A stretch of 64,000 bases of DNA, taken from the NCBI GenBank assembly GCA_913051185.1, contig CAJXBM010000002.1, forward strand, positions 1,166 to 65,165, written 5' to 3'. This document shows positions 2,357 to 49,370 of this stretch, one piece after another (position 1 is the first letter of the stretch; each line of letters starts with the position of its first letter). A program made the position numbers and the translations under genes. This DNA is from an uncultured Chloroflexota bacterium. Its GTDB lineage: Bacteria > Chloroflexota > Dehalococcoidia > UBA2979. The notes under the pieces are model-generated. The model did no database searches and was not told the origin of the DNA. It saw nothing but the letters and a program-made list of their open reading frames with translations.

Positions 2357-3007
2357 ATGAAGATTTTTATAGATACTGCAAACCTGGATGAAATAAAAAG
2401 AGCGGCAGCTCTAGGAGTCATTGACGGGGTAACCACGAATCCTTCCCTAGTTGCGAAAGAGGGCGTGGAATATAAAAGCCGTGTACTGGACATATGCAAT
2501 GTAGTTGATGGATCTATCTCGGCAGAGTGCATATCACTTGAACTAGATCAACTTTGTGCGGAAGCCAGACGAGTAGCAGCATGGCACCCAAACGTTACCG
2601 TAAAAATACCGATGAGTGAAGTTGGACTTCAGGCAATGGCAATTTTGTCTGCAGAAGGGATAGCAATCAATTGCACCTTGATTTTCAGTGTGAACCAAGC
2701 ATTATTGGCTGCGAAAGCTGGTGCGACATATGTTTCTCCATTTGTCGGAAGGATAAATGACGGAGGGGCTGACGGGATGCTGTTAATAAAAGAATGTGCC
2801 GAAATATTCTCCACTTACCCAGAAATTAAAACTGAGATTCTCTCAGCCTCGATCAGAAATCCCCGAGACGTGATTGAAGCCGCCTTGGCAGGGAGCCATA
2901 TTGCAACATTGCCACCCGCCGTATTGTTTCAAATGATAAACCATCCACTCACAGACCTAGGAATTACTGCTTTTCTGAAGGACTCACAATCTTACAGTCC
3001 TGTCTAA
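2357..3007 (+). CDS. tal: transaldolase / fructose-6-phosphate aldolase (short type 3B)
   Basis: 216 aa. [14 protein letters not shown]...GVTTNPSL N-terminus and the Schiff-base lysine context VTVKIP are typical of short Tal/FSA enzymes. Confidence 0.9.
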
Positions 3008-3221
3008 GGGTCACAGCCGGACTGCCGACCGCTAAGAATATCTAGAGATTCAATTCCTTCGATAGTTACCTATCTGGGTAACCATCTGATTATCCCTTTG
3101 CAAAATCATGAAATAGATATATAGTAATAGGGATTAGTAAGACATTTAAATGCAATATAACACTCTAATAGGGTATTTAAGCTTGTATTTAAACCTAAAA
3201 CACATATCAATTGGGTAATCT

Positions 3222-3659
3222 ATGTACGGAACCAGTCGACAAAAATTAGACTCCAATGGCAGGGTGTCTATTCCAATAAAGCATCTTCAGTCTTTCAATG
3301 CAGACTCGGCCACAGGTACAGGTCATGGCGTCCTTGTCACCGGAGATGATGGCTGCATAGAGTTGTTTCCTCTCGACGCCTTTAACGAAGAAATTCAGAA
3401 AACATTCTCGATTCAGCAAAATCCCCGGAACACTAACACGCGTGAGCAGCGTAGAAGATTAATTGGTAATGCTTATGGCGTAGATATTGATGAACGCGGC
3501 AGACTTTCGATTCCCAATAAATACCGAGAGTTTGCTGGACTGAAGTCGGGACCTGTAATCCTTTCAGCCTGTGGTGAGTATCTTGAAATTTGGTCGCCCG
3601 AGACATGCCCAAACCTATTACTCGAATTTCTTGCTGAAGAAAGGATTCGCCCAAAATAA
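3222..3659 (+). CDS. mraZ: transcriptional regulator MraZ
   Basis: 145 aa with two SpoVT/AbrB-like halves (LDSNGRVSIP and IDERGRLSIP, the duplicated D..GR..IP motif). First gene of the dcw cluster. Confidence 0.9.
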   Translation: MYGTSRQKLDSNGRVSIPIKHLQSFNADSATGTGHGVLVTGDDGCIELFPLDAFNEEIQKTFSIQQNPRNTNTREQRRRLIGNAYGVDIDERGRLSIPNKYREFAGLKSGPVILSACGEYLEIWSPETCPNLLLEFLAEERIRPK

Positions 3660-3967
3660 TGAATTTGAAAGACAACGGTAGAGAGCGCAGTGTGAGTGAT
3701 CTGTTTACAAACGGACGGAATCAAACTCATATAAAGACGTCGCCCCCTCGACAAAATAAAACAAGAGAATTCCGCTCAGAATATTTAATTCACATTGCGC
3801 TCTCTATCGTTGTCCAGTTAAAAAAAAGAAGTTTAGCAAATTCGGGATGGCTCCGAAAATATTTCATCAAATATAAATCCCCGCCCATATTAGATGAATT
3901 AATCGGAGCTATCTCGAATATTTTTTCTATCGTGGATGAAAGACGAGTGCTTATACGGTCTGCCTAA
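3659..3967 (+). CDS. hypothetical small basic protein (102 aa) between mraZ and rsmH; coding status uncertain
   Basis: Open frame joined to both neighbours by TAATG overlaps (mraZ stop 3657-3659 with ATG 3659; TAA 3965-3967 with rsmH ATG 3967). K/R-rich with no recognisable domain. It contains a 24-bp inverted repeat, so the region could instead be a structured leader. Confidence 0.4.
   Translation: MNLKDNGRERSVSDLFTNGRNQTHIKTSPPRQNKTREFRSEYLIHIALSIVVQLKKRSLANSGWLRKYFIKYKSPPILDELIGAISNIFSIVDERRVLIRSA
3671..3814 (+). repeat. 24-bp inverted repeat / predicted long RNA hairpin (arms 3671-3694 and 3791-3814, 96-nt spacer)
   Basis: Arm1 is GACAACGGTAGAGAGCGCAGTGTG. The reverse complement of arm2 is GACAACGATAGAGAGCGCAATGTG. 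The only two differences are G opposite T on the + strand (G-U wobbles in a sense transcript, C-A mismatches in an antisense one). A possible nested helix is CGGAAT 3716-3721 with ATTCCG 3769-3774. Confidence 0.75.
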
Positions 3968-4959
3968 TGAGAGCTAAATTAGAAGTTCCCTCAAGTAGTC
4001 TGCACCAGTCAGTGTTGGTAAACGAAGTACTCGACCTACTTGTCACCAAATCTGGAGGCAATTACATAGATGGGACTGTTGGAGCCGGAGGCCATACAGC
4101 CGCAATACTAAAGAGAGCCGGACTCGGTTCCCACGTCTTAGGAATTGATCACGATCCTGACGCACTGAATTGGTCAAAAAAAACACTCGCCGATTTTAAA
4201 GATCAGATAACGTTAGTGTCTGGTAAATTTTCTGAAATTACAGCGATATGCAACGAATATAAGCTCAACAATATCAGAGGCATCCTACTCGATCTCGGTC
4301 TGTCATCAATGCAGATTGAACGCTCAAATAGAGGGTTTTCGTTTATGCGAAACGAGATTCTTGATATGAGGATGAATCCAAGCTCAGAACTAACTGCCAA
4401 ACAAATAATTAACGATTGGGAACCGTCAGAAATTGCAAGGATAATCAGTAAGTACGGTGAAGAACGGAATGCAAAAAAAATAACTCGACAAATTATAAAA
4501 AATAGACCAATCAAAACTACTAAAGAATTAGTTCGAATCATAGAAACAGCAGTCGGATCAGTAACCGCAAAACAAAGACAAAAGCATCCAGCGACTAAAA
4601 CCTTCCAAGCCTTGAGAATTACGGTTAATGACGAACTTGCTGAATTAGAAAAAGGTCTGCATACCATCCATGAATTCTTAAGCCGAACGAGTCAAATCTC
4701 CGGGGAAAGTACAAGACTGGCGATTATCTCTTTTCATTCTCTTGAAGATCGACTGGTGAAATCTTTTTTTAGATACGAGTCAGCATCTTGTGTCTGCTCG
4801 AAGCGATTACCTATCTGTACCTGTGAACACAGCCCGACACTAAAAGAACTGACCCGAAAGCCAATTGTCGCATCAGAAGATGAAATAAAGCAGAACCCCC
4901 GAGCACGATCTGCCAGATTGCGTGTAGCTGAGATACTACCGAAAGTAAACCGGTCATAA
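3967..4959 (+). CDS. rsmH: 16S rRNA (cytosine1402-N4)-methyltransferase RsmH
   Basis: 330 aa. HQSVLVNEVL, SAM-binding DGTVGAGGHT, LDLGLSSMQ, and C-terminal NPRARSARLRVAE. Canonical position after mraZ. Confidence 0.93.
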   Translation: MRAKLEVPSSSLHQSVLVNEVLDLLVTKSGGNYIDGTVGAGGHTAAILKRAGLGSHVLGIDHDPDALNWSKKTLADFKDQITLVSGKFSEITAICNEYKLNNIRGILLDLGLSSMQIERSNRGFSFMRNEILDMRMNPSSELTAKQIINDWEPSEIARIISKYGEERNAKKITRQIIKNRPIKTTKELVRIIETAVGSVTAKQRQKHPATKTFQALRITVNDELAELEKGLHTIHEFLSRTSQISGESTRLAIISFHSLEDRLVKSFFRYESASCVCSKRLPICTCEHSPTLKELTRKPIVASEDEIKQNPRARSARLRVAEILPKVNRS

Positions 4960-5462
4960 TGCGAAGTTCGCTTAACTTAAATAACAAGCCAAATCGAGGT
5001 CTAACCCATGAACGCCCTCGACAACGCTTCACAAAGAAACTGCTAAATTATTTTCCTCCACTTTCTCTTCAAAACCGACGATTGTCTCCCGCAATATTCT
5101 TGGCTCTCCTACTAATCTCTGTTGCAGCTGGTTTAGCCATCTTCCAGATTCAGGCGACTGCGCAGATACCGGGACTTGCTATTAAATTAACTGACACTAG
5201 ACATCAATCTGCCGAAGTCACTTTTAAGTCCAGAGTATTGGCAACTGACTTGGCGATAAAACTCGTAAAGGCCAATGAGCAAGCCTATGATCTATCAAAA
5301 AATGTCGAGATAGCATCAAGAAAACTTCAAATCTCTTCCCAAATAATTTTGACCGAAAAATCTTCAAAAGATACATTCCGACAAATATTTCCTCGCCAGT
5401 ATCTACCCCCTGAAGTCATTAAATCAATGGTGCAAATTGATAAATCTGGACTGGTGGAATGA
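4959..5462 (+). CDS. FtsL/DivIC-like bitopic divisome membrane protein (by position and topology only)
   Basis: 167 aa, TAATG-coupled to rsmH and overlapping the ftsI start. Basic N-terminus, a single TM helix (AIFLALLLISVAAGLAIF), then an extracytoplasmic segment. No sequence-level family assignment. Confidence 0.5.
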   Translation: MRSSLNLNNKPNRGLTHERPRQRFTKKLLNYFPPLSLQNRRLSPAIFLALLLISVAAGLAIFQIQATAQIPGLAIKLTDTRHQSAEVTFKSRVLATDLAIKLVKANEQAYDLSKNVEIASRKLQISSQIILTEKSSKDTFRQIFPRQYLPPEVIKSMVQIDKSGLVE

Positions 5463-11139: not shown

Positions 11140-12335
11140 GTGATAGGTTATTTGGAATTGGCAAAAAATCGATCGCCCGCTCTGAGATCATCATAAGCCA
11201 AAGGGACAGACACTCTCCAGATTATCTACTCTTCTGTATCACCAGTCTTTTAACAATAATCGGCCTAGTTGCAATCACTTCAACGGCAACTCTAGATTCT
11301 AATTTGAACACGCTTTCTGGTTTTGGTCGAAGACATGCGATGATGCTGGCAATTGGATTTGTGTTTCTACTAATTTTTCAAGCGTTGGATTATCGCCAAC
11401 TCGCAAGATGGAGTCCCATTGCGGTAGGCCTGGCACTTTTACTTCTCTCATTACTTTTCGTGCCAAACTTAGGAATTGAAGTCAACGGCGCAAGATCTTG
11501 GTTGAGTCTGCCGTTTCTTCCGGCAATCCAACCCTCGGAATTTGCCAAGCTAGCTTCAATTATTTACTTGGCAGCATGGTTAACAGCGAAAGGAAATACT
11601 ATTCGCAGCATAGAAACAGGAATAATTCCTTTCATGCTCATCGTAGGGATCATACTCGGACTCATCATACCTCAGCCCGACATAGGTACGGCCTTCATTC
11701 TAGCTTCCATAATAGGCTGCATGTTTTTCACCGCGAACACTACGAAAATAATTCATATCTTTCTATTGGCAATATCTGGAACGGTTGTTGCGGGTTTATT
11801 AATCCTCAGTGCACCATATCGATGGCAGCGAATACTAGCCTTTATTTCATCCGATTCTGACCCTCAGGGAATCGGCTATCACACTATACAGCTAGCAAAT
11901 GCATTCGGATCTGGAGGACTAATTGGTCAAGGCCTAGGACTCTCTCGGCAGAAATTTTATTATCTTCCCGCTGCCAAAACTGATGGCATTATCGCGGTGA
12001 TCGGAGAAGAGACTGGTTTCGTTGGTAGCATGATAGTGGTATTGCTACTCTCCGCTTTACTTTGGAGAGGCTGGCTCCTTGTAAAAAACGCGCCTGATAT
12101 GTTTGGTTCACTTGTGGCAACAGGAATCTGTAGCTGGATTGCTATTCAGAGCGGTATCAATATCGCTGGTGCCACCAACCTGATACCGCTGACGGGTGTT
12201 CCACTCCCACTAATATCGTATGGAGGCTCATCGCTGATATCCATACTCGCAGGAATAGGTATTCTAATGTCGATTAGTCGGTACACTGTGCTGCATGAAT
12301 CCAACAATACAAATGAGAAAAGAATTATCGCATAA
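11130..12335 (+). CDS. ftsW: SEDS-family peptidoglycan polymerase FtsW
   Basis: 401 aa with about 10 TM helices. QPSEFAKL, PDIGTA and LPLISYGGSS motifs of the FtsW/RodA family. dcw context. Confidence 0.9.
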   Translation: MRLSDRLFGIGKKSIARSEIIISQRDRHSPDYLLFCITSLLTIIGLVAITSTATLDSNLNTLSGFGRRHAMMLAIGFVFLLIFQALDYRQLARWSPIAVGLALLLLSLLFVPNLGIEVNGARSWLSLPFLPAIQPSEFAKLASIIYLAAWLTAKGNTIRSIETGIIPFMLIVGIILGLIIPQPDIGTAFILASIIGCMFFTANTTKIIHIFLLAISGTVVAGLLILSAPYRWQRILAFISSDSDPQGIGYHTIQLANAFGSGGLIGQGLGLSRQKFYYLPAAKTDGIIAVIGEETGFVGSMIVVLLLSALLWRGWLLVKNAPDMFGSLVATGICSWIAIQSGINIAGATNLIPLTGVPLPLISYGGSSLISILAGIGILMSISRYTVLHESNNTNEKRIIA

Positions 12336-15004
12336 TGGCAACAAAAGACATCAAGTCAAGCATGAAGCCTCCACTATTCGAGCTAAATGAATCTTCCGAA
12401 TTAGCCCATCTCGGCCAGAATAAAAAAAATGAGGACATAGCAAATATTATCCATATTGGATTGGCTGGTGGAGGAACTGGTGGGCATGTCTACCCAGCTC
12501 TTGCCATAAAGGAAAGACTAAGTCGGTTCGATACCGAAGCCGAACTGCGCTTCACATATTTCGGATCTACTGAAGGAAAAGAAGCAAAAATCATAGCTGA
12601 CGAAGATATTAACTTCATCGCAGTCGAATCGGCCGCTGTTAGAACGAAGTCTCCCTATCACTTCATGAAGGGGATATATATGCTGTGGAAAGGAACACAA
12701 TCAGCGCTCCAACATCTCCGCGAAGAATCAATAGATGTGATATTTGCGACCGGAGGTTATGCTTCGGCTCCAATATGTCGAGCTGCCACGAAACTAGGTA
12801 TCCCCATTATTCTTTTTTTACCGGACGTAGTACCAGGTTGGGCTGTCAAATTTATCTCCAAAGATGCAAATCTAATTCTTTGCTCAAATAAAAAATCATT
12901 GGACTACCTTGACTCAACCAAATCAATCGAAACAGGATATCCCGTGCGATCAGTTTTTCAAGAGAAATTTAACGGAGAGCGAAACTTCATAAGAAGTGGC
13001 GCAAGAGAATCACTCGGATTGAGCAATGATCACCCCACCGTTTTGATTGCAGGAGGTTCAATAGGCTCTCGACTCATTAATGACCAAATTCTACGCACTC
13101 TTCCAGAAGTCCTAGATGTTGCAAATGTGATCCATGTCACTGGCGATAGGGACTACGGCCGAGTCATCAAAGAAACAAAATCCCTAGCTGAGACACATGC
13201 TGAGAAATATCTTGTTTTTGATTACAGTGATGAAATGGAAGTGTTAATGGCTGCCGCAGATATAGGAATTTTCAGAGGTGGTGCCTCGGTTGTTGGGGAG
13301 GCATCTATCGCAAGCCTCCCCAGTATCATTATTCCGGGCTCATTTTCAGATCAATCTGCAAACGCAGAAATCCTTAGAACGGCAGGAGCATCGATCGTCT
13401 TGGCCGAAAAGGATCTTGAGAAATTAGGTGAAACCATTGTCCACCTTATTTCGCATCCAAGTGAACTCAGTCGCATGACTGAAAATGTTTCTGCCCTCAG
13501 TCGGCCATACGCTGCAGAACAAATCAGTTCAATCATATTGAAAGCCGCGACACGAAATTCCCCCGAATTACCGGTAAATATTCATCTGATAGGAGCTGGA
13601 GGGATACATCTTTCTGGAATCGGAGAAATACTTTTACAGAATGGACACAAGGTCACCGGCTCAGACCTCGTTGAGAGTGACATAACAAAAAAATTAGCAA
13701 AAAGAGGCGCCAAGATACACATCGGACATTCTGAAAGAAATATTGATCACCCTGATCTAGTCGTCACGACCGCTGCTGCAAAAACTGATAATCCCGAATT
13801 ACAAGCAGCTCGAGAGAAAGGAATCCCAATTGTTTCACGCGCTGAAATGGTCAGTCGCTTAATTTCAGATCGACGCCTACTGGCAGTGGCCGGCTCCCAC
13901 GGCAAAACTACGACTTCTTCATTGGCAGCTCTGATGGCTCAAAAGGCCGGACTGGACCCAATTGCATTGATTGGCGGAAATATCCCTGATCTGAATAACT
14001 CAAATGTATTGAATGGTCGCGGTCAGACGGCAATTGTTGAAGCTGATGAGTATGCGGATGCGTTCCTTTCCTACAAACCTTCAATAGCGGTAATCACAAA
14101 TATCGATCCTGATCACCTAGATTATTTTGGTACCGAACAAATATTCTATGAATCCTTTAAAAAATTCACCTCACAAATAGTGAGAGGTGGTGTTCTTGTT
14201 GTTTGTGCGGACGACGAGGGCGCCATGACTATTACAGAGAATAGTCCACGTGATAACCTGCAAGTCGAAACCTACTCAGTCTATCCAAAAGGGGGAGACT
14301 GGTATGCCGATAAGATCGAATACAGAGAAGATATAACTAGGTTTGATGTGTACTTCAAAACACAAAAACTCGGTTCAGTGTCTATAAAACTCGTCGGCCA
14401 ACACAATATTTCAAATTTCCTGGCTGCTCTGGCTGCCAGCATGCATGCCGGCGTAGATTTTATGACCGCGTCACAGGCGGCTCATACATTCCGAGGAGCC
14501 AGACGGAGGTTTGAATTAGTCGGTGAGATTACATTTCAGCATAATCTCGAAAACATTAAAAAGCTTCCGATATCTGTTATTGATGATTATGCTCATCATC
14601 CAACAGAAATAAGGGCCACCATCCGTGCTGCAAAAAATAGATACCCCGACCGCCGAATTATTGCTTGTTTTCAGCCTCACACTTTTTCTAGGACAAAATA
14701 TCTTTTGAATGAGTTTAGAAATTGCTTTGAGGGAATTGATTCACTGCTACTACTGAAAACATTCGCAGCACGAGAAGATGCCGTAGATGGCCTATCCGCC
14801 AAAGACTTAGTTGATCTTATCGAAAATATTGAAGTTGCATATGTAGATTCAATTGATGACGCAGTGCAGGCTGCCGTCCAAAAAATTAAGCCTGGAGATA
14901 TTTTTATAAGTATCGGTGCAGGTGATGTTACAAAAGTCCCATGGCTATTGCTACCAGAATTGCAAAAAGTAACCTGGGATCGAGCTCTTGGCAACACTAC
15001 ATAG
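12335..15004 (+). CDS. bifunctional MurG (undecaprenyl-PP-MurNAc-pentapeptide GlcNAc transferase) / MurC (UDP-MurNAc--L-alanine ligase) fusion
   Basis: Single 889-codon frame. Residues ~38-405 carry MurG motifs (GLAGGGTGGHVYPALA, IAGGSIGS). From ~aa 413 (nt ~13571) come MurC motifs (IHLIGAGGIHLSGIGEIL, P-loop AGSHGKTTTSS, DDYAHHPTEI). There is no stop or alternative start at the junction. Confidence 0.85.
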   Translation: MATKDIKSSMKPPLFELNESSELAHLGQNKKNEDIANIIHIGLAGGGTGGHVYPALAIKERLSRFDTEAELRFTYFGSTEGKEAKIIADEDINFIAVESAAVRTKSPYHFMKGIYMLWKGTQSALQHLREESIDVIFATGGYASAPICRAATKLGIPIILFLPDVVPGWAVKFISKDANLILCSNKKSLDYLDSTKSIETGYPVRSVFQEKFNGERNFIRSGARESLGLSNDHPTVLIAGGSIGSRLINDQILRTLPEVLDVANVIHVTGDRDYGRVIKETKSLAETHAEKYLVFDYSDEMEVLMAAADIGIFRGGASVVGEASIASLPSIIIPGSFSDQSANAEILRTAGASIVLAEKDLEKLGETIVHLISHPSELSRMTENVSALSRPYAAEQISSIILKAATRNSPELPVNIHLIGAGGIHLSGIGEILLQNGHKVTGSDLVESDITKKLAKRGAKIHIGHSERNIDHPDLVVTTAAAKTDNPELQAAREKGIPIVSRAEMVSRLISDRRLLAVAGSHGKTTTSSLAALMAQKAGLDPIALIGGNIPDLNNSNVLNGRGQTAIVEADEYADAFLSYKPSIAVITNIDPDHLDYFGTEQIFYESFKKFTSQIVRGGVLVVCADDEGAMTITENSPRDNLQVETYSVYPKGGDWYADKIEYREDITRFDVYFKTQKLGSVSIKLVGQHNISNFLAALAASMHAGVDFMTASQAAHTFRGARRRFELVGEITFQHNLENIKKLPISVIDDYAHHPTEIRATIRAAKNRYPDRRIIACFQPHTFSRTKYLLNEFRNCFEGIDSLLLLKTFAAREDAVDGLSAKDLVDLIENIEVAYVDSIDDAVQAAVQKIKPGDIFISIGAGDVTKVPWLLLPELQKVTWDRALGNTT

Positions 15005-15085: not shown

Positions 15086-16156
15086 TTGCTACGCGTTGGC
15101 CTAATATTTGGTGGTAATTCTCCGGAACATCGGGTGTCGGTGGCGTCGGCGCTTAGCATCATCAACCAACACAACTCTTCAGATATCTTGCTAGATGTTT
15201 TTGGCGTGAGCGAAGGTGGTGCATGGTTAAGCCCGGAGGAAACACGGTCTAGATTAGAGAAGGTTCAAAAATCAGGTTGGGGTAGTCTCGGCACTGACAC
15301 GGAACCAACAATCTTCCACAACTCCGACGTCATCAACGGGCTCGAAAAGTGTGACGTAATTTTCCCCATAATCCATGGAAATTCCGGTGAAGATGGGACC
15401 TTACAGGGTCTACTTTGGTTCCTTGGAAAGCCCTACGTGGGCTCTGGTGTATCTGCAAGCGCGGCTGGGATGAATAAGGCAACTATGCGAGCACTTTTCG
15501 CGGCGCATGATATTTCGCAGACAAAGTACTTAACCATCGATTATGTGGACAGCTCAGCTGAATTGAAACTTAGAATTAATGAAATCGAATCGACGCTTGC
15601 CTATCCTCTCTTTGTGAAGCCAGCATCTGCAGGATCTTCAATAGGTGTAAGCAAGACACATAATTCTGAAGAACTCCTAGACGGCTTGATAAATGCTCTG
15701 GAATACGATTCGCAACTACTAGTGGAAGAAACATTGACAGGTAGAGAGCTGGAATGTGGAGTAATCGAGCTTAGTAGCCTAAGCGCAACGCCACTCGGCG
15801 AAGTACGAACTACGAACGAATTCTACGATTACTCAAGCAAATATATGGACGAGTCAACCACAATTATTGTTCCCGCCCTAGTCGAAAAAGAAATACAGCA
15901 ACAAATACAAACCATGGCTATGCAAGCATTCCGTGCAGTCGGAGCAAAAGGCTATGCGCGCGTCGACTTTTTTCTGAGCCACGACGACAAAATTAAATGT
16001 ATCGAGATAAACACCCACCCTGGATTTACTTCCAAATCGATGTTCCCAAAACTTTGTTCCGAATTTGGGCTTAATTATTCGGATTTAATTTCCGCTCTGG
16101 TTCAAACGGCCAGCCAAATAACTCCAAGGAGGAATTTTGAATCTATATCTCTCTAA
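15086..16156 (+). CDS. ddl: D-alanine--D-alanine ligase
   Basis: 356 aa with a TTG start. VGLIFGGNSPEHRVSV, HGNSGEDGTLQGLL and an ATP-grasp segment FVKPASAGSSIGV. Confidence 0.92.
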   Translation: MLRVGLIFGGNSPEHRVSVASALSIINQHNSSDILLDVFGVSEGGAWLSPEETRSRLEKVQKSGWGSLGTDTEPTIFHNSDVINGLEKCDVIFPIIHGNSGEDGTLQGLLWFLGKPYVGSGVSASAAGMNKATMRALFAAHDISQTKYLTIDYVDSSAELKLRINEIESTLAYPLFVKPASAGSSIGVSKTHNSEELLDGLINALEYDSQLLVEETLTGRELECGVIELSSLSATPLGEVRTTNEFYDYSSKYMDESTTIIVPALVEKEIQQQIQTMAMQAFRAVGAKGYARVDFFLSHDDKIKCIEINTHPGFTSKSMFPKLCSEFGLNYSDLISALVQTASQITPRRNFESISL

Positions 16157-16955
16157 AAAGTTATTCGTTGATTTACGAGCTTATGCTCGACTCGCCAAAG
16201 TATGGACTCCATCAAGTTCATCTATTACTAAAGGCTTGCTTCTGTTTTTTTTGGTCACGTCGGTACTACTGATAATCCGACCTGAAAATGAGCTAACTAA
16301 AAAAGTTAGTTATACGAAACAAGTAGATATCACCACAAAAAACCAAATCAATCAATTCCTTGGGTCAAGGAATATCATCTTTGACTTTCTTTTTGTGACG
16401 CAATTAAGCCAAGATATTAATCGACTTGAATTCGTACAGCACGCAAAAGTAACAAGAAATGAGTTATTGACGTTCGAGTTAGCCTTAACAGAATTTATAC
16501 CTCATGCCTACTGGCATACAGGAACCGCCCGAATCGCTGTTGATCTCCACGGAAATATACTGACTAATTTCACTCCAAAACAACGACCTGTGATAATCGA
16601 ACTGCAAGAAATATCGATCAACCACCTTCTAGCTTCACCAAATAGAGATGCATTATTAGCACTGAAACTAATCGAAGAAGAGCCCTTAGCTCAAGAATTA
16701 ATAGGTGAAAATGTTACATATGTCTTCACTAAAAGTGAGGGTCTTTCAGCGGAACTTCCGAATGGATCAATTGTTGTTATCGGTGATAGCACGAATATCG
16801 ATGAGAAATTAATTGCCTGGCGCATTTTCAAGACACAGATTGATGCTGCAGACCCCAAAAATCCAATTCATTTAGATCTTCGTTTCAAAAATCGGGCATT
16901 AATAAGTAATAACTTAACCACGTCTCTGACTGCCCAAAAAGTATTAAAGGACTGA
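16137..16955 (+). CDS. ftsQ: cell division protein FtsQ/DivIB-like
   Basis: 272 aa with a TTG start. A single TM helix (LLLFFLVTSVLLII) followed by a POTRA-like region. Sits between ddl and ftsA. The sequence is divergent, so the call rests mainly on position and topology. Confidence 0.65.
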   Translation: MNLYLSKKLFVDLRAYARLAKVWTPSSSSITKGLLLFFLVTSVLLIIRPENELTKKVSYTKQVDITTKNQINQFLGSRNIIFDFLFVTQLSQDINRLEFVQHAKVTRNELLTFELALTEFIPHAYWHTGTARIAVDLHGNILTNFTPKQRPVIIELQEISINHLLASPNRDALLALKLIEEEPLAQELIGENVTYVFTKSEGLSAELPNGSIVVIGDSTNIDEKLIAWRIFKTQIDAADPKNPIHLDLRFKNRALISNNLTTSLTAQKVLKD

Positions 16956-16964
16956 GAGTAAATT

Positions 16965-18221
16965 ATGTCAGGCAAATACTTTGCAATTACGACTCCTGAA
17001 TCGTCAAAAATAGTAACAATTGTTGGTGAGCTAGATGGGACAGGAATCAATATTCTGCATCACGCCATATCGGAAAGCACGTTCTTTAAGGCCGGTAAAA
17101 TACAAGAGGCCATCCCGGACGCTGTGCAAGCTATAAGACATACCCTGCCGGCCTGTGACTCCGATATCATAATCGAGAGCACGCACCTCGGGATAAGTGG
17201 AGCCTTATCAACTCAAGTAAACGCTCAAAACACAATAACAATTCCGCCCCATCGCCAAATAACACTAAAAGACAAACAGACAGTAGACAGCGCCGCGATA
17301 CCTGCATTAGATGCGTCTTTACCGGTCGGCTACGAACTTCTGGATTATGTACCACTGCACTATTACGTAGGCCCTGAGAAAAAGTTAGACCCCTTGGGAC
17401 ACCAAGGAGACAGCTTGACCGTTGCGGCCGTAGGAATAGCTGCCGATAAAAACTCAATGAATGTCATAGAAGAATGTCTTCATCGTGCTTCAGTTGCTAC
17501 GGTGCGCAGCATTCCTTTATCGACTGCAGCTGCTCACGCCACATTAATTAGTGATGAAAAGTATGAAGCGATGGCCGTGATAGATATCGGTCATTGTGTA
17601 ACTAATGTCTCTGTCTGTGTCGATGGAAAAATAATAGCTTCCAAATCTTTTTTGAGTGGTGGTGAATCTGTTACTCAAGATATTCGCGAAGTCTTCAACG
17701 CCAAGGACCCAGAGGAAGTTAAACACTCTTTTGGAAGTTGCGTACCATCGCTCGTGAAAAACGCTGAGTTAATACCGGTCAAAAAAACAAATGGCGAAAT
17801 TCATCTAGAATCTCAGTCTAAATTAGCTGCTGTAATTCAAGCCCGTGTAGAAATCGACATAATTGCCCCGATTCTCAAATATATTGACAAAGAAATTATC
17901 CCCCTAACAAAGTTGAGTGGCGGTATAGTATTAGTTGGGGGAACGGCTAGGTTAAAAAATATTGAAAACCTAACCAAGATGATTGCGGCGGACTTAGGAT
18001 GTCCTCATATTTTGATACAAAATCCCGCCGAAATTACCCCCCCTTACATCAATAATCTTCCTGACGAACTTAAGTCCCCGCGCTTTGCAGCGCCTCTGGG
18101 TGTCCTTTCTATTGCTTCAAGCTGGCTAGAAAATGAACCCGAACAAGTCAGCACAGTAGATGAATCACTCTCATTTGGAACAAGTGTGGCACGTGCGCTA
18201 GCAGGTGTTTTCGGAGCGTAA
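16965..18221 (+). CDS. ftsA: cell division protein FtsA (divergent; degenerate nucleotide-binding motifs)
   Basis: 418 aa with an actin-fold layout. Recognisable blocks are AVIDIGHCVTNVSV (the phosphate-2 position), GGIVLVGGTARLKNI (adenosine motif) and a C-terminal amphipathic tail SVARALAGVFGA. Lies immediately upstream of ftsZ. Confidence 0.8.
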   Translation: MSGKYFAITTPESSKIVTIVGELDGTGINILHHAISESTFFKAGKIQEAIPDAVQAIRHTLPACDSDIIIESTHLGISGALSTQVNAQNTITIPPHRQITLKDKQTVDSAAIPALDASLPVGYELLDYVPLHYYVGPEKKLDPLGHQGDSLTVAAVGIAADKNSMNVIEECLHRASVATVRSIPLSTAAAHATLISDEKYEAMAVIDIGHCVTNVSVCVDGKIIASKSFLSGGESVTQDIREVFNAKDPEEVKHSFGSCVPSLVKNAELIPVKKTNGEIHLESQSKLAAVIQARVEIDIIAPILKYIDKEIIPLTKLSGGIVLVGGTARLKNIENLTKMIAADLGCPHILIQNPAEITPPYINNLPDELKSPRFAAPLGVLSIASSWLENEPEQVSTVDESLSFGTSVARALAGVFGA

Positions 18222-19965
18222 TTATTATGAAATGCGAGTTAAACAGAAGGGAACGATTTTACTGATGACTGAACTCAACCACCTAAATGACAGATCGAAT
18301 TCTGGAAAAGTCGGCTCTGAAATTCGTATGAGTCGAAATTATTTAGAGGATGTCAGAACTATGAGGGCCGTTAAAGCCGCCCGCAATCAGATCCAAGATG
18401 GACTGGGTACACGTGGTTCAATTGTCTCCAATAATGCCAAAGATTCTCACTACACGCCAAGACCTATTCGTGATTTTCCGGAGCGGGAAGATCCTATAAA
18501 TACTAGAGAAAAAATAATTAATCAAAATTTGAACCACGATTCTCAAGCACATGAAACAAATATCTCAAAGTTAGACATTGGAAGTTCATCCTCCCAAAAC
18601 ACTCATGAAAATCTGACTTCAGCAACTAGTTTGAGTCGCTCGAATAAAACCAGACGAGATATCCCTGATTTTGACAATATGGTCGAAATCACAGTGATCG
18701 GTGTTGGTGGTGGTGGGTCAAATTCAGTAGGTCGAATGGATCCCGTTCCAGGAGTAACATACATAATTGCTAACACTGACAGTCGTGCGCTTGCAGCACT
18801 CGATGTTGATCAAGAGATTCATTTGGGGAGAACACTGACGAGAGGAAAGGGCGCTGGAGGTAGGGCCGAACGAGGAAAAGCTGCTGCGGAAGAAGCACGT
18901 GATTCAATTGGTCAAGCATTAGACGGATCTGAAATTGTCTTTATTACAGCATGCTTAGGCGGTGGTACTGGATCGGGTGCTGGGCCAGTAATCGCCGAAA
19001 TAGCCAATAATCTTAAAATCGGTGAAGATCATGTTCTGACGGTTGCCATTGTCACGATGCCTTTCAGCTGGGAAGGCACTAGAAAAAGAGCGATTGCGGA
19101 AGATTCGCTAGAAAACTTCCGAAGCAATGTCGACGCAGTAATAGTGATAGAAAATGATTTACTTCCAACGGCATTCCCGGCTGAAGAGGACGGCCAGCCA
19201 AACCTTGGGATCGAAGATGAATTCAGGTTAACTGACAAGATTTTATCTGATGCCATCCAAGGTTTGAGCGAAATCATAACGGTCAACGGCGTTTGGAATT
19301 TGGATATTGCCGACTTTAGATCCACTATGGAAAACGCGGGAGATGCGGTAATCGCTATAGGAAGTGCTTCAGGAGATAACCGAGCTGTTGGTGCCGCACA
19401 AAGAGCTTTAGCCAATCCCCTGATAAATACAGATATTACTAATGCGAAACGACTTTTAATTAACGTTGTGGGGCCCGCAAGCAATAATCAGCACTCAGAC
19501 AAATTAGTATTACCACTCACTCGAGATGAGATTCGAAAAATCAAAGAAGTCGTAGGTGAACGAGCTCATCCAACTGAATGTGATGTCTTCACTGGAGTAA
19601 TGCTACGTGATGATCTCGAAGATGAAATTCACGTAACGATTGTGGCTGCTGATTTCGAAAACTTTGAAGCCACAAGTATTGATATGGCTCTGGATCAGGG
19701 AACACGCAATCTAGAAAAATATGATTTAACGTCCATTCCTAAGCTAGAAGAACTAAGAAAATCCTTAGCAACGCCAATTATTTCGAGTCCTGAAATTATT
19801 GATTCGAGAGAAGAGATAACGCCACCCCCCAAAGCTATTGAGACCTCGGATGATGCAAACCCGAGGGAATCTCAAGCTGAAAAAACCGCACAAGATACAA
19901 CTCAAATCACAAATTTTGCCAGCAATGACGTTCCTTATTACAACAAAGATATTCCTGAACGCTAA
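18205..19965 (+). CDS. ftsZ: cell division GTPase FtsZ with N-terminal extension (start codon uncertain: 18205 GTG, 18265, 18328, 18361 or 18679 ATG)
   Basis: The core begins at MVEITVIGVGGGGSNSV (nt 18679). Tubulin signature GGGTGSGAGPVIAEIA and T7-region NLDIADF. The frame stays open for 158 codons upstream of the core. A ~100-aa C-terminal linker ends in KDIPER. Confidence 0.9.
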   Translation: MFSERNYYEMRVKQKGTILLMTELNHLNDRSNSGKVGSEIRMSRNYLEDVRTMRAVKAARNQIQDGLGTRGSIVSNNAKDSHYTPRPIRDFPEREDPINTREKIINQNLNHDSQAHETNISKLDIGSSSSQNTHENLTSATSLSRSNKTRRDIPDFDNMVEITVIGVGGGGSNSVGRMDPVPGVTYIIANTDSRALAALDVDQEIHLGRTLTRGKGAGGRAERGKAAAEEARDSIGQALDGSEIVFITACLGGGTGSGAGPVIAEIANNLKIGEDHVLTVAIVTMPFSWEGTRKRAIAEDSLENFRSNVDAVIVIENDLLPTAFPAEEDGQPNLGIEDEFRLTDKILSDAIQGLSEIITVNGVWNLDIADFRSTMENAGDAVIAIGSASGDNRAVGAAQRALANPLINTDITNAKRLLINVVGPASNNQHSDKLVLPLTRDEIRKIKEVVGERAHPTECDVFTGVMLRDDLEDEIHVTIVAADFENFEATSIDMALDQGTRNLEKYDLTSIPKLEELRKSLATPIISSPEIIDSREEITPPPKAIETSDDANPRESQAEKTAQDTTQITNFASNDVPYYNKDIPER

Positions 19966-27303: not shown

Positions 27304-27379
27304 GGCCCCGTAGTGTAGCGGTTAACACGTCGCCCTGTCACGGCGAAGATCGGCGGTTCGAATCCGCTCGGGGTCGCCA
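27304..27379 (+). tRNA. tRNA-Asp (anticodon GTC), CCA encoded
   Basis: Cloverleaf folded by hand. Acceptor GGCCCCG/CGGGGTC with G2-U71. D stem GTGT/ACAC. Anticodon stem TCGCC/GGCGA with loop CTGTCAC. T arm GGCGG-TTCGAAT-CCGCT. Discriminator G followed by CCA. Confidence 0.95.
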
Positions 27380-47198: not shown

Positions 47199-47927
47199 TT
47201 ACAAATTCTTGCGACGGCGCAGCTTCACAAATGCTATCAAACCCTTGATTATTCTATAGACCTCAACTGGATTAATTTTTTTTCGAGGCTGAGCAGCAAG
47301 GTCTGATAATTTTTTGACGAACGAATCATGAATTACAAAGCCGTGACCCGGTGCAGCTACGTCAGTGGCAGAACCAGCTAGAACACTCAGTGATTTGATA
47401 TAGAGTTCGTCATCCGCATTTAAAAACTTCAGTGGTCGTGAAAGAGTGCTTGTATGGCTAATAATCGCATCCCCCGTGAATGTAACTCCAGACTTGTCAC
47501 AAATATATGCAAGTGATCCCAATGTATGGCCAGGTAAAGACAATGCTCGCAGACCTTCAGTTAACCAAGTGACTAAACCCATTTTTCCTGGCACGACTGT
47601 CGTCACTCGACTCCCTCCGATCCAAGGCACGTTATCATCATCAAAAACACAGTCCCCCTCACCCACAGCAATCCTTGCCTGGGGAAAATATTGATGCAGA
47701 TCGCTTAGTCCGCCAATGTGATCACGATGTTTATGCGTAAGCAATATGTATGTGACATCACCTAGCCCATTCGCAATCTGAATCTCGGAGATTTCTGAAA
47801 TGATTTCTTTCGATATTCTGAAGCCGGAATCAACGATAGCTAATTCACGATTGTCAATTTCAACCGCATACACATTGCAGCCGCGAGCAGAGCGCAGCTG
47901 CCAAACACTCGAAGCTATCGGTCTCAT
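47199..47927 (-). CDS. MBL-fold metallo-hydrolase
   Basis: 242 aa. THKHRDHIGG (HxHxDH), with downstream His and Asp ligands (PGHTLGS, APGHG). Confidence 0.85.
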   Translation of the reverse strand: MRPIASSVWQLRSARGCNVYAVEIDNRELAIVDSGFRISKEIISEISEIQIANGLGDVTYILLTHKHRDHIGGLSDLHQYFPQARIAVGEGDCVFDDDNVPWIGGSRVTTVVPGKMGLVTWLTEGLRALSLPGHTLGSLAYICDKSGVTFTGDAIISHTSTLSRPLKFLNADDELYIKSLSVLAGSATDVAAPGHGFVIHDSFVKKLSDLAAQPRKKINPVEVYRIIKGLIAFVKLRRRKNL

Positions 47928-49237
47928 CAGGACGGCATATCCAGGTCCAGGTCCATTACTTTCTGAATTAGCGGTACCAACTCGCTTAATTCAACTTTGA
48001 CATTACCTATATTGCCTTCAGATTCTCGAAGATACTTTACCGTAACCTTACCCTCCGCAGCCTCAGAGTCCCCAGCTAATATTGCGATGCCTGCATCGCT
48101 TGAGTTTGCTGCCCTCATCAACGCTTTCACAGATCTACCTGATTCGCCCGATCGTACAGACACGCCTAATTTTCTTATGTCATTCGTAATCCCAAGCAAC
48201 ATTTCGTGGCCTAGTTCACTGACTGGAATAATGAAAATATCCGGTTTTGGAATGGACTCCTCGACCAAGTTTTGCTCAACCATATTGAGAATTATTCTCT
48301 CTATTCCAGTCGCAAATCCAACTCCTGGCGTAGGGTCCCCTCCCAGTTGCTCCAAGAGGCCATCATATCTGCCTCCCCCACCTATTGTGGACTGCCCACC
48401 ACCACTTTCGGGCTCGAATTCCCAAACCGTATGAGTGTAATAATCTAATCCTCTCACAATGGAATTATCAATCACGTATTCAATTCCCAAGGAATCAAGA
48501 TCTCTTAAAACAGAGGAAAAATGCTTTGTTTCGTCGTCATCTAAATAATCTAATATTTTTGGTGCATCCGCGATAATCGCCTGATCTGTCTCCAACTTGC
48601 TGTCCAAAATACGCAATGGATTAGTAACAAGCCGAGCTTGCGATTCAGGCGAGAGTTTTTCACGATATTCTTGCAGATAATCACTAAATGCCGTGATAAA
48701 TCTTCCACGCGTCGCCCCTGTTCCGATAGAGTTTATAGAGAGTCGCAGGCCCTTTAGGCCCAAAGCTTGATACAGGTTACTCTGTAGATTAATCACCTCT
48801 GAATCTAATGATGGACTTTTCGAACCTATAGCTTCCACTCCGAATTGGGTAAGCTGCCGGTACCTACCTGCTTGAGGTCGATCGTATCTAAAAAAAGATC
48901 CAAAGTAACAAAGTCGTACTGGTTGTGCCTGAGATTTCATTCCATGCTCGATATAGGCACGCCCTACACCAGCTGTATTTTCTGGGCGTAAGGCTAGAGG
49001 CTCTCCTCCACGGTCTTCAAAGACATACATCTCCTTCTGCAACAAGTCTGACTCTTCACCGACAGTCCGTGAAAATACACCAATATCCTCTACTATTGGC
49101 GTTGTGATTTCATGATAATCAAAAGTTCTAGCCACCTCAAAACAGGCGTCACGTATCTTTTTCATGACATGTGAATCTTTTGGCAAGATATCTCGCATAC
49201 CGCGAGGAGCCTGCAATCTCTTTTTATCTGACACCAT
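47927..49237 (-). CDS. hisS: histidine--tRNA ligase (ORF extends to 49294; ATG 49237 preferred)
   Basis: PRGMRDILP, the class II motifs (FRYDRPQAGRYRQLTQFGVE, GGGRYDGL), and a C-terminal anticodon-binding domain. Confidence 0.94.
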   Translation of the reverse strand: MVSDKKRLQAPRGMRDILPKDSHVMKKIRDACFEVARTFDYHEITTPIVEDIGVFSRTVGEESDLLQKEMYVFEDRGGEPLALRPENTAGVGRAYIEHGMKSQAQPVRLCYFGSFFRYDRPQAGRYRQLTQFGVEAIGSKSPSLDSEVINLQSNLYQALGLKGLRLSINSIGTGATRGRFITAFSDYLQEYREKLSPESQARLVTNPLRILDSKLETDQAIIADAPKILDYLDDDETKHFSSVLRDLDSLGIEYVIDNSIVRGLDYYTHTVWEFEPESGGGQSTIGGGGRYDGLLEQLGGDPTPGVGFATGIERIILNMVEQNLVEESIPKPDIFIIPVSELGHEMLLGITNDIRKLGVSVRSGESGRSVKALMRAANSSDAGIAILAGDSEAAEGKVTVKYLRESEGNIGNVKVELSELVPLIQKVMDLDLDMPS

Positions 49238-49370
49238 GATTAACCTGTCCATAAACTGCTCTATACACCTAAATCCTAACTTGTTCGTCAGCAAGGCTCA
49301 TCTGTAATTGAATTTCTTGCCTTAAACACTCACTATTTAGATATACTTTAGTTTTGAAAGAGATGATTGA

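Follow-up and report, generated by a model that had tools for sequence, protein, structure and literature searches.

The stretch of DNA analysed here, 64,000 nt from an uncultured Chloroflexota bacterium (referred to as the window), contains mraZ and rsmH, the first two genes of a dcw operon, and these are separated by a spacer of 307 nt. The spacer very probably encodes an RNA whose secondary structure is under selection, and the sequence comparisons place this structure on the sense strand. It consists of two long hairpins, termed hairpin 1 and hairpin 2, both of which lie within an open reading frame (ORF) that fills the whole spacer (3659-3967, + strand, 102 codons) and overlaps the neighbouring genes in the sequence TAATG at both ends. 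Comparison of related sequences demonstrates that selection keeps this frame free of stop codons and detects no constraint on its amino acids. The explanation we favour, with about even confidence, is a composite one: a clade-specific structured RNA that would act in cis on the dcw mRNA from inside a translated linker.

Hairpins of the mraZ-rsmH spacer

An earlier note on this DNA, made from its letters and ORFs alone, reported a 24-bp hairpin in the spacer with two exceptions to Watson-Crick pairing, each a G opposite a T on the + strand. A repeat search bears out both statements. The arms of hairpin 1 are found at 3671-3695 and 3790-3814; they are 25 nt long, 94 nt apart and complementary at 23 of 25 positions (92%). 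The non-Watson-Crick positions are G3678/T3807 and G3690/T3795, which read G.U on the sense strand and C.A on the antisense strand. RNAfold lengthens the outer helix to 27 bp, with a 5′ arm at 3671-3697 that begins 12 nt after the ATG of the frame, and a 3′ arm at 3788-3814 that is found by the repeat search, the fold and the pair counts described below (all + strand). The segment 3668-3817 folds at -59.0 kcal/mol, whereas 200 dinucleotide-shuffled sequences give -26.3 ± 3.5 kcal/mol (z = -9.3). With up to 3 mismatches allowed, the arm sequence has only two sites in the window, and none of 100 shuffles gave any match. Hairpin 1 also represents the longest inverted repeat of the 64 kb with arms no more than 400 nt apart, the next separated-arm pair being 19 nt long and 84% complementary.

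The interior of hairpin 1 (3713-3777, + strand) is itself structured. It displays the helices 3713-3721/3769-3777 and 3726-3728/3765-3767, and a small hairpin, 3739-3742/3749-3752, with the loop CCCCCU at 3743-3748. A nested helix at 3716-3721/3769-3774 had been proposed in the earlier note, and it is present in both the minimum-free-energy fold and the consensus fold. Within this interior an 18-nt block, 3733-3750, is invariant in 18 of the 18 distinct spacer variants described below.

That note is incomplete in that it overlooked the second long hairpin and the complete ORF in the spacer. An A-rich linker, variable among the variants (3815-3839, + strand), leads from hairpin 1 to hairpin 2 (3840-3919, + strand). 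Hairpin 2 has an outer helix of 17 bp (3840-3856/3903-3919), an inner helix (3860-3874/3887-3901) and a 12-nt apical loop, AAAUCCCCGCCC, at 3875-3886; it folds at -35.6 kcal/mol (z = -6.5). One base 3′ of it is a U-run (3921-3926, + strand), whose length is 6 U in the window, 7-9 U in most variants and 4 U in a single variant. A stable hairpin with a U-run after one base would suit an intrinsic (Rho-independent) terminator; however, the stem is ~30 bp long, with a 12-nt loop and an AU-rich base.

The entire spacer folds at -101.6 kcal/mol, with z = -8.6 on the + strand versus z = -5.1 on the - strand. In three divergent variants each hairpin folds independently, with z from -5.6 to -10.5. The apical loops, CCCCCU (3743-3748) and UCCCCGCCC within 3875-3886, are invariant in all 18 variants. 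A nearly invariant block, CTTATACGGTCTGCCTAATGAGAGCT, covers the end of the frame and the start of rsmH (3949-3975, + strand).

Relatives of the spacer

Relatives were gathered via the contigs of homologues of the 102-aa frame, together with contigs found through MraZ and RsmH. The spacer was found in identical form in 6 independently assembled contigs (NCBI, ENA, JGI and Tara), and variants of it are present in more than 40 further contigs. The earlier note had allowed for an assembly artefact at this locus, and this is contradicted by the recovery of the spacer from dozens of independent assemblies. Altogether there are 18 distinct versions, 83-100% identical, from more than 50 contigs. One of them, L103 (positions 179-504 of a 792-nt contig), combines hairpin 1 arms of two strain types, the 5′ arm from one and the 3′ arm from the other, which leaves three mismatches; chimeric assembly or recent recombination is the probable cause, and the contig was retained in the counts despite its mismatched arms.

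The element is confined to one group of marine bacteria. Eight homologues of the 102-aa frame were found, 67-89% identical when the full alignment is counted; each comes from a marine metagenome, and none has a Pfam domain. Exact copies of the MraZ protein are found on marine metagenome contigs from NCBI, ENA, JGI and Tara, and a search with MraZ gave only 4 close homologues. Proteins of the contig, or members of their clusters, are named “Dehalococcoidia bacterium” and “Chloroflexota bacterium” in NCBI sources. The identity of RsmH homologues falls from 78% to 50% or less outside the clade, and since there are no intermediates, the insertion cannot be dated through them. An RsmH scan of a genome collection found only relatives at ≤47% identity, which served as a background for spacer length. 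In the nearest outgroup, a Chloroflexota metagenome-assembled genome, mraZ and rsmH are 8 nt apart, and the mraZ-rsmH spacers of 15 other diverse bacteria are at most about 100 nt. These short spacers point to the 307-nt element as an innovation of an isolated marine clade that is Dehalococcoidia-like.

Selection on the RNA structure

Pair counts were made on an alignment of 16 distinct variants, with 500 shuffles, and with pairing partners slid by 1-3 columns, as controls. RNAalifold recovers both hairpin 1 and hairpin 2 as the consensus. On the sense strand 98.5% of the pair cells are canonical, and with the slid registers only 36-46% of cells pair. Six pairs have changed on both sides, a number reached by 4 of the 500 shuffles. 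There are 16 double-change cells versus 4.9 expected, and the covariation score is 0.092 versus 0.072; for each of these two measures the result in the shuffles is 0 of 500. In the outer helix of hairpin 1 compensatory changes fall at alignment columns 28/159, 30/157 and 40/147, and three pairs of this helix, G-C/U-A, U-A/C-G and A-U/G-C, have switched jointly between the window-type variants and all others. The pair C3853-G3906 of hairpin 2 is replaced by U-A in variant L113. Where only one side of a pair has changed, the change is always a transition and the sense strand retains a G.U pair; because of this the mirrored structure on the antisense strand is less well paired, at 89.0% overall and 87% in both outer helices. 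Comparison with orthologous spacers had been proposed in the earlier note as a check; the helices are kept and the double changes exceed those in shuffles, in 16 variants of shallow divergence.

The level of conservation is also unusual for this locus. Mean pairwise identity is 0.970 in hairpin 2 and 0.881 in the whole spacer, followed by tal (0.847), mraZ (0.843), rsmH (0.808) and ftsL (0.722), and the true intergenic region upstream of mraZ has a value of 0.659 with 11 gap columns. Thus the spacer is the best-conserved DNA of the locus.

The strand asymmetry bears on the possibility that the inverted repeats function at the DNA level, namely as the operator of a dimeric regulator, as a cruciform or as a promoter region inside the spacer. 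In favor of this, inverted repeats underlie both hairpins, and hairpin 2 is rich in A and T and includes a stretch similar to TATAAA. However, pairing is 98.5% on the sense strand compared with 89.0% on the antisense strand, the changes maintain complementarity rather than sequence, and no promoter-like site is called within the spacer. A role as DNA palindromes is therefore highly improbable.

A solitary miniature inverted-repeat transposable element (MITE) or similar selfish insertion, which the earlier note had listed among its candidates, would account for the 25-nt inverted repeats, which look terminal, and for an insertion limited to one clade. Against this, the element has one copy in the 64 kb (pattern search) and none in the fetched flanks of any locus (nhmmer), so that the statement in that note that no second copy was seen can be extended to the flanks. 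As the note also stated, there is no target-site duplication: the flanks differ (...TTTGAAA|GACAAC versus GTTGTC|CAGTTAA). The element is more conserved than the neighbouring coding sequence. It occupies the orthologous position even in lineages between which the synonymous sites of the flanking genes have reached saturation, and its own evolution is slower than that of those sites. Two invariant 18-mers had one match each in viral contigs, with unrelated flanks, and these matches were put down to chance. Finally, the arms covary, with compensatory changes that are not expected of dead transposon ends, and on these grounds a MITE is rejected. Taken together with an artefact of assembly, an origin of this type is extremely improbable.

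The arm ends of hairpin 1 (...CAAC / GTTG...) are reminiscent of an integron attC site. The R″/R′ consensus RYYYAAC/GTTRRRY is not matched and the site is orthologous and housekeeping, and this candidate was rejected. A retron was likewise rejected, as there is no reverse transcriptase nearby.

The check with Infernal against Rfam that the earlier note had suggested was carried out. Positions 3000-4200 were compared with 4227 models of Rfam 15 (cmscan, E ≤ 10, permissive filters), and only sub-threshold hairpins resembling miRNA precursors were obtained, with no RF01746. Thus no described RNA family matches the spacer. With the sense-specific pairing, the compensatory changes and a conservation above that of the flanking genes, this agrees with the reading as a novel cis-regulatory or structured RNA, one of several that the note had offered.

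The 102-codon open frame

The stop codon of mraZ, TAA at 3657-3659, shares one base with the ATG of the frame, and the stop codon of the frame overlaps the ATG of rsmH in the same way. In all variants without a deletion the overlap T(A/G)ATG is kept at both ends, with a change from TAATG to TGATG at the 3′ end in L124. The frame is 102 codons long in 16 of the variants and 105 codons in the other two, and it is free of stops in all of them. The two longer versions, L096 and L113, have lost the single base between hairpin 2 and the U-run, and the shifted frame runs 11 nt into rsmH.

A stop-free run of 101 codons has a probability of ~0.0009 at this base composition. From at least 108 substitution events ~5 stops would be expected (~5% of possible changes) and none is seen (Poisson P about 0.007). 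The other five frames have 2-3 fixed and 4-9 polymorphic stop positions each, and the 102-codon frame has none. It is from these figures that selection for a stop-free frame can be demonstrated.

The question is whether the frame is also a genuine gene for a small basic protein of 102 aa, with the RNA structure as an overlapping second constraint. In its favor are an open frame in 18 of 18 variants, the statistical support for stop avoidance, the conserved length and start/stop overlaps, and the fact that gene callers predict the ORF in every contig. In addition, amino-acid divergence (nonsynonymous difference, dN, 0.13) does not exceed the value for RsmH.

Codon-position, synonymous and dN/dS (nonsynonymous to synonymous) comparisons were made between the window and three divergent relatives, L087, L094 and L096. 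The differences at codon positions 1, 2 and 3 are about 11, 10 and 14 in the frame, versus 17, 5 and 62 in mraZ and 59, 33 and 154 in rsmH. Among all variants the variable columns number 32, 27 and 33 by codon position, and there is no third-position excess even among those in unpaired regions (22, 16 and 26). The dN/dS of the frame is about 0.5, equal to that of the other two frames of the same DNA, versus 0.02-0.26 in neighbouring genes. Synonymous-site difference is 0.09-0.24 in the frame versus 0.25-0.76 in the neighbouring genes for the same genome pairs, and in comparisons with the window it is about 0.2 versus 0.55-0.76 in the flanking genes.

Codon usage and positional base composition are likewise not gene-like. 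The codon-usage score of the frame, 0.134, compares with 0.061 ± 0.075 for random stop-free sequence (P = 0.16) and with 0.185 for the 5th percentile of genes in the window. The GC content at codon positions 1, 2 and 3 is flat, 0.41/0.38/0.37, versus 0.55/0.41/0.38 in genes. Where the RNA is free to vary, radical replacements are found, e.g., NLK/TPT/TCT, G/C and I/A. The translated product has no match in Pfam and no homologue outside the clade. The AlphaFold2 model from a nine-sequence alignment is of low confidence, with a predicted local distance difference test (pLDDT) score of 52 and a predicted template modelling (pTM) score of 0.21.

An ordinary protein gene was rejected on the flat substitutions by codon position and the random-like codon usage, and a protein gene that shares its sequence with the RNA is quite unlikely. 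The sequence comparisons thus indicate that the constraint acts on nucleotides, not on amino acids.

One-base TAATG overlaps are found at four junctions of the dcw operon: 3659, 3967, 4959 (rsmH/ftsL) and 12335 (ftsW/murG-murC). Other dcw junctions overlap by 4-20 nt. The recurrence of this junction suggests a chain-like translational coupling along the operon. No Shine-Dalgarno-like sequence is present before the ATG of rsmH, and several unlinked genes of the window have one.

Possible roles of the element

The conserved double hairpin, the open frame and the stop/start overlaps on both sides can be read from the aligned sequences themselves, and it is from these that we infer a mechanism. 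Ribosomes finishing mraZ would restart at the overlapping ATG, translate the element and restart once more at rsmH; restart through the overlapping ATGs is proposed because rsmH lacks its own ribosome-binding site. If a stop codon arose within the element, ribosomes would be stranded, translation would be uncoupled and essential cell-wall and division genes downstream would be exposed to polarity; stops would therefore be purged. The hairpins may set in cis how much expression passes from mraZ to rsmH-ftsL-ftsI-mur. Hairpin 1, 12 nt past the restart codon, would lie roughly at the entrance of the mRNA channel and present a duplex of 25-29 bp that needs to be unwound. When untranslated, it would be a candidate site for a double-strand RNase (RNase III). 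The continuous duplex, 27 bp in the window and 29 bp in L096, has the length of an RNase III substrate (about two helical turns), and processing of this type is compatible with the helix. Hairpin 2 with its U-run would be a candidate terminator or 3′-end-forming structure, suppressed by translating ribosomes and active when ribosomes lag.

Several points weigh against this explanation or limit it. The weakest point is that a simple barrier, terminator or processing stem leaves the invariant apical loops and the many invariant unpaired bases of the interior unexplained; these imply recognition by some partner factor. A terminator scan makes no call at hairpin 2, and the rest of the window has no excess of canonical hairpin-plus-U terminators (17 versus 17.7 in shuffles). 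With respect to the structure itself, the divergence of the alignment is shallow (83-100% identity), three of the four double changes in outer helices, those of hairpin 1, share a single branch of four window-type variants, and a measure of further pair types equals that of shuffles (25 versus 25.2). A translating ribosome would melt the structure that is conserved, and the two constraints must then act at different times or on different molecules. Finally, the mechanistic steps beyond a conserved sense-strand structure in an open frame are ones that we infer.

The main rival is a stable small RNA that would arise by cleavage of the operon transcript, or by termination within it, and would act in trans. 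Its 5′ side would be guarded by hairpin 1, hairpin 2 and the U-run would form the 3′ end, and the loops (CCCCCU and UCCCCGCCC) would be seeds for G-rich sites, e.g., ribosome-binding sites. Bacterial small RNAs usually end in a hairpin and a U-run. In the 18 variants the stems accept compensated changes, but the loops and the bases around them do not vary; the invariant C-rich loops imply a partner and therefore favor this rival. The dcw operon of E. coli yields stable structured RNAs from mraZ, ftsL, ftsI and murE (PMC6156199). However, a small RNA leaves the stop-free frame unexplained, and no G-rich complement of the C-rich loops occurs above chance in the 64-kb window, which is a small part of the genome. 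On balance an RNA acting in trans is rather unlikely.

Another type of partner would be a protein. The hairpins could be a protein-binding regulatory RNA, with, for example, RsmH recognising loop 2 and repressing its own synthesis. The element is directly upstream of rsmH and its loops are invariant. Loop 2 (UCCCCGCCCAU) shares CCGCCC, and 8 of 11 bases, with the universal 16S segment ACACCGCCCGU (the 1392-1406 primer region, which contains C1402), and a likeness to the target of the enzyme would fit such binding. However, a 6-nt match between C-rich sequences has an estimated chance of roughly 5-10%, and loop 1 matches only at CGCCC. In addition, RsmH acts on 30S subunits, not on naked RNA. 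Regulation by protein binding of this kind is very unlikely.

The element could also be a gate that couples the expression of cell-wall and division genes to the state of the translation machinery, in one of two forms. In the first (form A), ribosomes would have to plough through the double hairpin to keep the operon transcribed and translated. In the second (form B), RsmH would read loop 2 (CCCCGCCCAU) as a mimic of its 16S target (CACCGCCCGU, C1402) and feed back on its own mRNA. Taken as a whole, a gate of either form is unlikely. If true, either form would give the start of the dcw operon a regulatory logic that has not been described before, and the gate would be a rare case of selection that preserves an open frame purely for ribosome transit.

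Two other regulatory devices were considered and dropped. A possible anti-terminator pairing of 6 bp (GCUCUC/GAGAGC) between the hairpin 1 3′ arm and the rsmH start region was discarded, as the site does not covary with the arm. A riboswitch was judged unlikely because the closing helix, 25-29 bp and about -50 kcal/mol, leaves no room for ligand-dependent switching.

Comparison with known RNA elements

By position and presumed role the spacer element is closest to the mraW RNA motif (RF01746), a candidate cis-regulatory structured RNA known only from Actinomycetales (PMC2864571); transcription of the region of this motif has been observed in Corynebacterium (PMC3890552). Like the mraW motif, the spacer element is found in the dcw operon downstream of mraZ and directly upstream of mraW/rsmH, and it ends at the rsmH start codon. 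Unlike the motif, it is from Chloroflexota and not Actinomycetales, it is much larger with two long hairpins and lies within an open frame, and the RF01746 covariance model does not match it. At the gathering score RF01746 also had no match in twelve other loci scanned (actinobacterial, Chloroflexota and other). Judged from these sequence comparisons, the element is not a member of the mraW family.

A second parallel is with the “decRNAs” internal to ORFs of the E. coli dcw genes, e.g., a 173-nt RNA derived from ftsI (Dar and Sorek 2018, PMC6156199). This ftsI-derived RNA has a stem-loop at each end, and synonymous substitution is suppressed in it. The spacer element resembles the decRNAs as a structured RNA that lies within translated sequence and in which synonymous change is reduced. 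However, the proteins that host the decRNAs are clearly under selection, whereas the spacer frame has no protein-level constraint; there is no sequence similarity, and the spacer element is known here from sequence alone.

RNase III processing hairpins, such as those of phage T7 early mRNA, the rRNA operon stems and the rpsO-pnp leader, have a continuous duplex of more than 20 bp. Like the intercistronic hairpins of this kind, the spacer element appears to be a long duplex between cistrons of one transcript, but it differs from the usual RNase III sites in its invariant apical loops, second conserved hairpin and maintained reading frame. With the trp-type leader-peptide attenuators it would share the principle that translation of the frame, and not the product, matters, and that a hairpin with a U-run can be suppressed by the position of a ribosome. 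It differs from them in that the frame is intercistronic and has 102 codons, rather than being a short 5′ leader, and in that neither an anti-terminator pairing nor an evident run of regulatory codons was found. As far as we could find, a long double hairpin has not been described in the literature together with a frame that stays open for ribosome transit only.

The balance of MraZ versus RsmH and the downstream division genes is poorly understood, and work in E. coli suggests an antagonism between MraZ and RsmH. The element would be a second, independently evolved structured RNA at the mraZ-rsmH junction after the actinobacterial mraW motif, which suggests a recurrent control point. In addition, it would be a clean case from nature in which two constraints are superimposed, one on the fold of an RNA and one that keeps a frame open in the absence of selection on the protein, and it is a trap for gene callers, since the segment is annotated as a hypothetical protein in every contig. 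The host belongs to an abundant, uncultured marine lineage of Chloroflexota for which, to our knowledge, almost no regulatory RNAs have been described.

Genes of the locus and other features of the window

The assignment of mraZ and rsmH in the earlier note is confirmed by Pfam. The gene for MraZ is the ORF 3222-3659 (+ strand; Pfam MraZ, 8.9e-20), and that for RsmH (MraW), the N4-methyltransferase of 16S rRNA C1402, is the ORF 3967-4959 (+ strand; Pfam Methyltransf_5/MraW, 8.2e-108). After rsmH the order is ftsL, a penicillin-binding protein gene (PBP/ftsI), murF, mraY, murD, ftsW, a fused murG-murC, ddl, an ftsQ-like gene, ftsA and ftsZ.

A promoter-like site (TTGCAA, 16 nt, TATAGT) is present upstream of mraZ at 3098-3125 on the + strand, and both hexamers are within invariant islands. 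It would drive sense transcription across the spacer. The intergenic region 3098-3216 as a whole is 66% conserved, yet it contains invariant islands. E. coli MraZ binds TGGGN repeats. Three T(A/T)GGG(A/T) boxes are found upstream of mraZ in the window, ~41 nt apart: AATAGGGAT at 3126-3134, ATAGGGT at 3169-3175 and ATTGGGTA at 3209-3216. By analogy these boxes are candidate MraZ operator repeats.

Some of the other dcw ORFs deserve mention. A single ORF of 889 aa, 12335-15004, has both MurG domains (Glyco_transf_28 N and C) and MurC-like Mur ligase domains and thus represents a murG-murC fusion. The FtsZ ORF as listed, 18205-19965, has a GTG start and encodes 586 aa, with the tubulin domain only from residue 161, which points either to a long extension at the N terminus or to a true start further downstream. 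The ORFs at the expected positions of ftsQ (16137-16955, 272 aa) and ftsL (4959-5462, 167 aa) have no match in Pfam. The latter gene is the fastest-evolving of the locus, with 55% amino-acid identity among clade members.

At the gathering score, a comparison of the whole 64-kb window with Rfam gave only tRNA. The GC skew is strongly negative (-0.1 to -0.19) across 26000-50000, where the genes switch to the minus strand, and this switch in orientation falls just after a tRNA-Asp at 27304-27379. The second-best separated inverted repeat of the window, at 48221-48311, has arms of 19 nt that are 84% complementary and 53 nt apart, and it is situated inside the minus-strand ORF 47927-49294.

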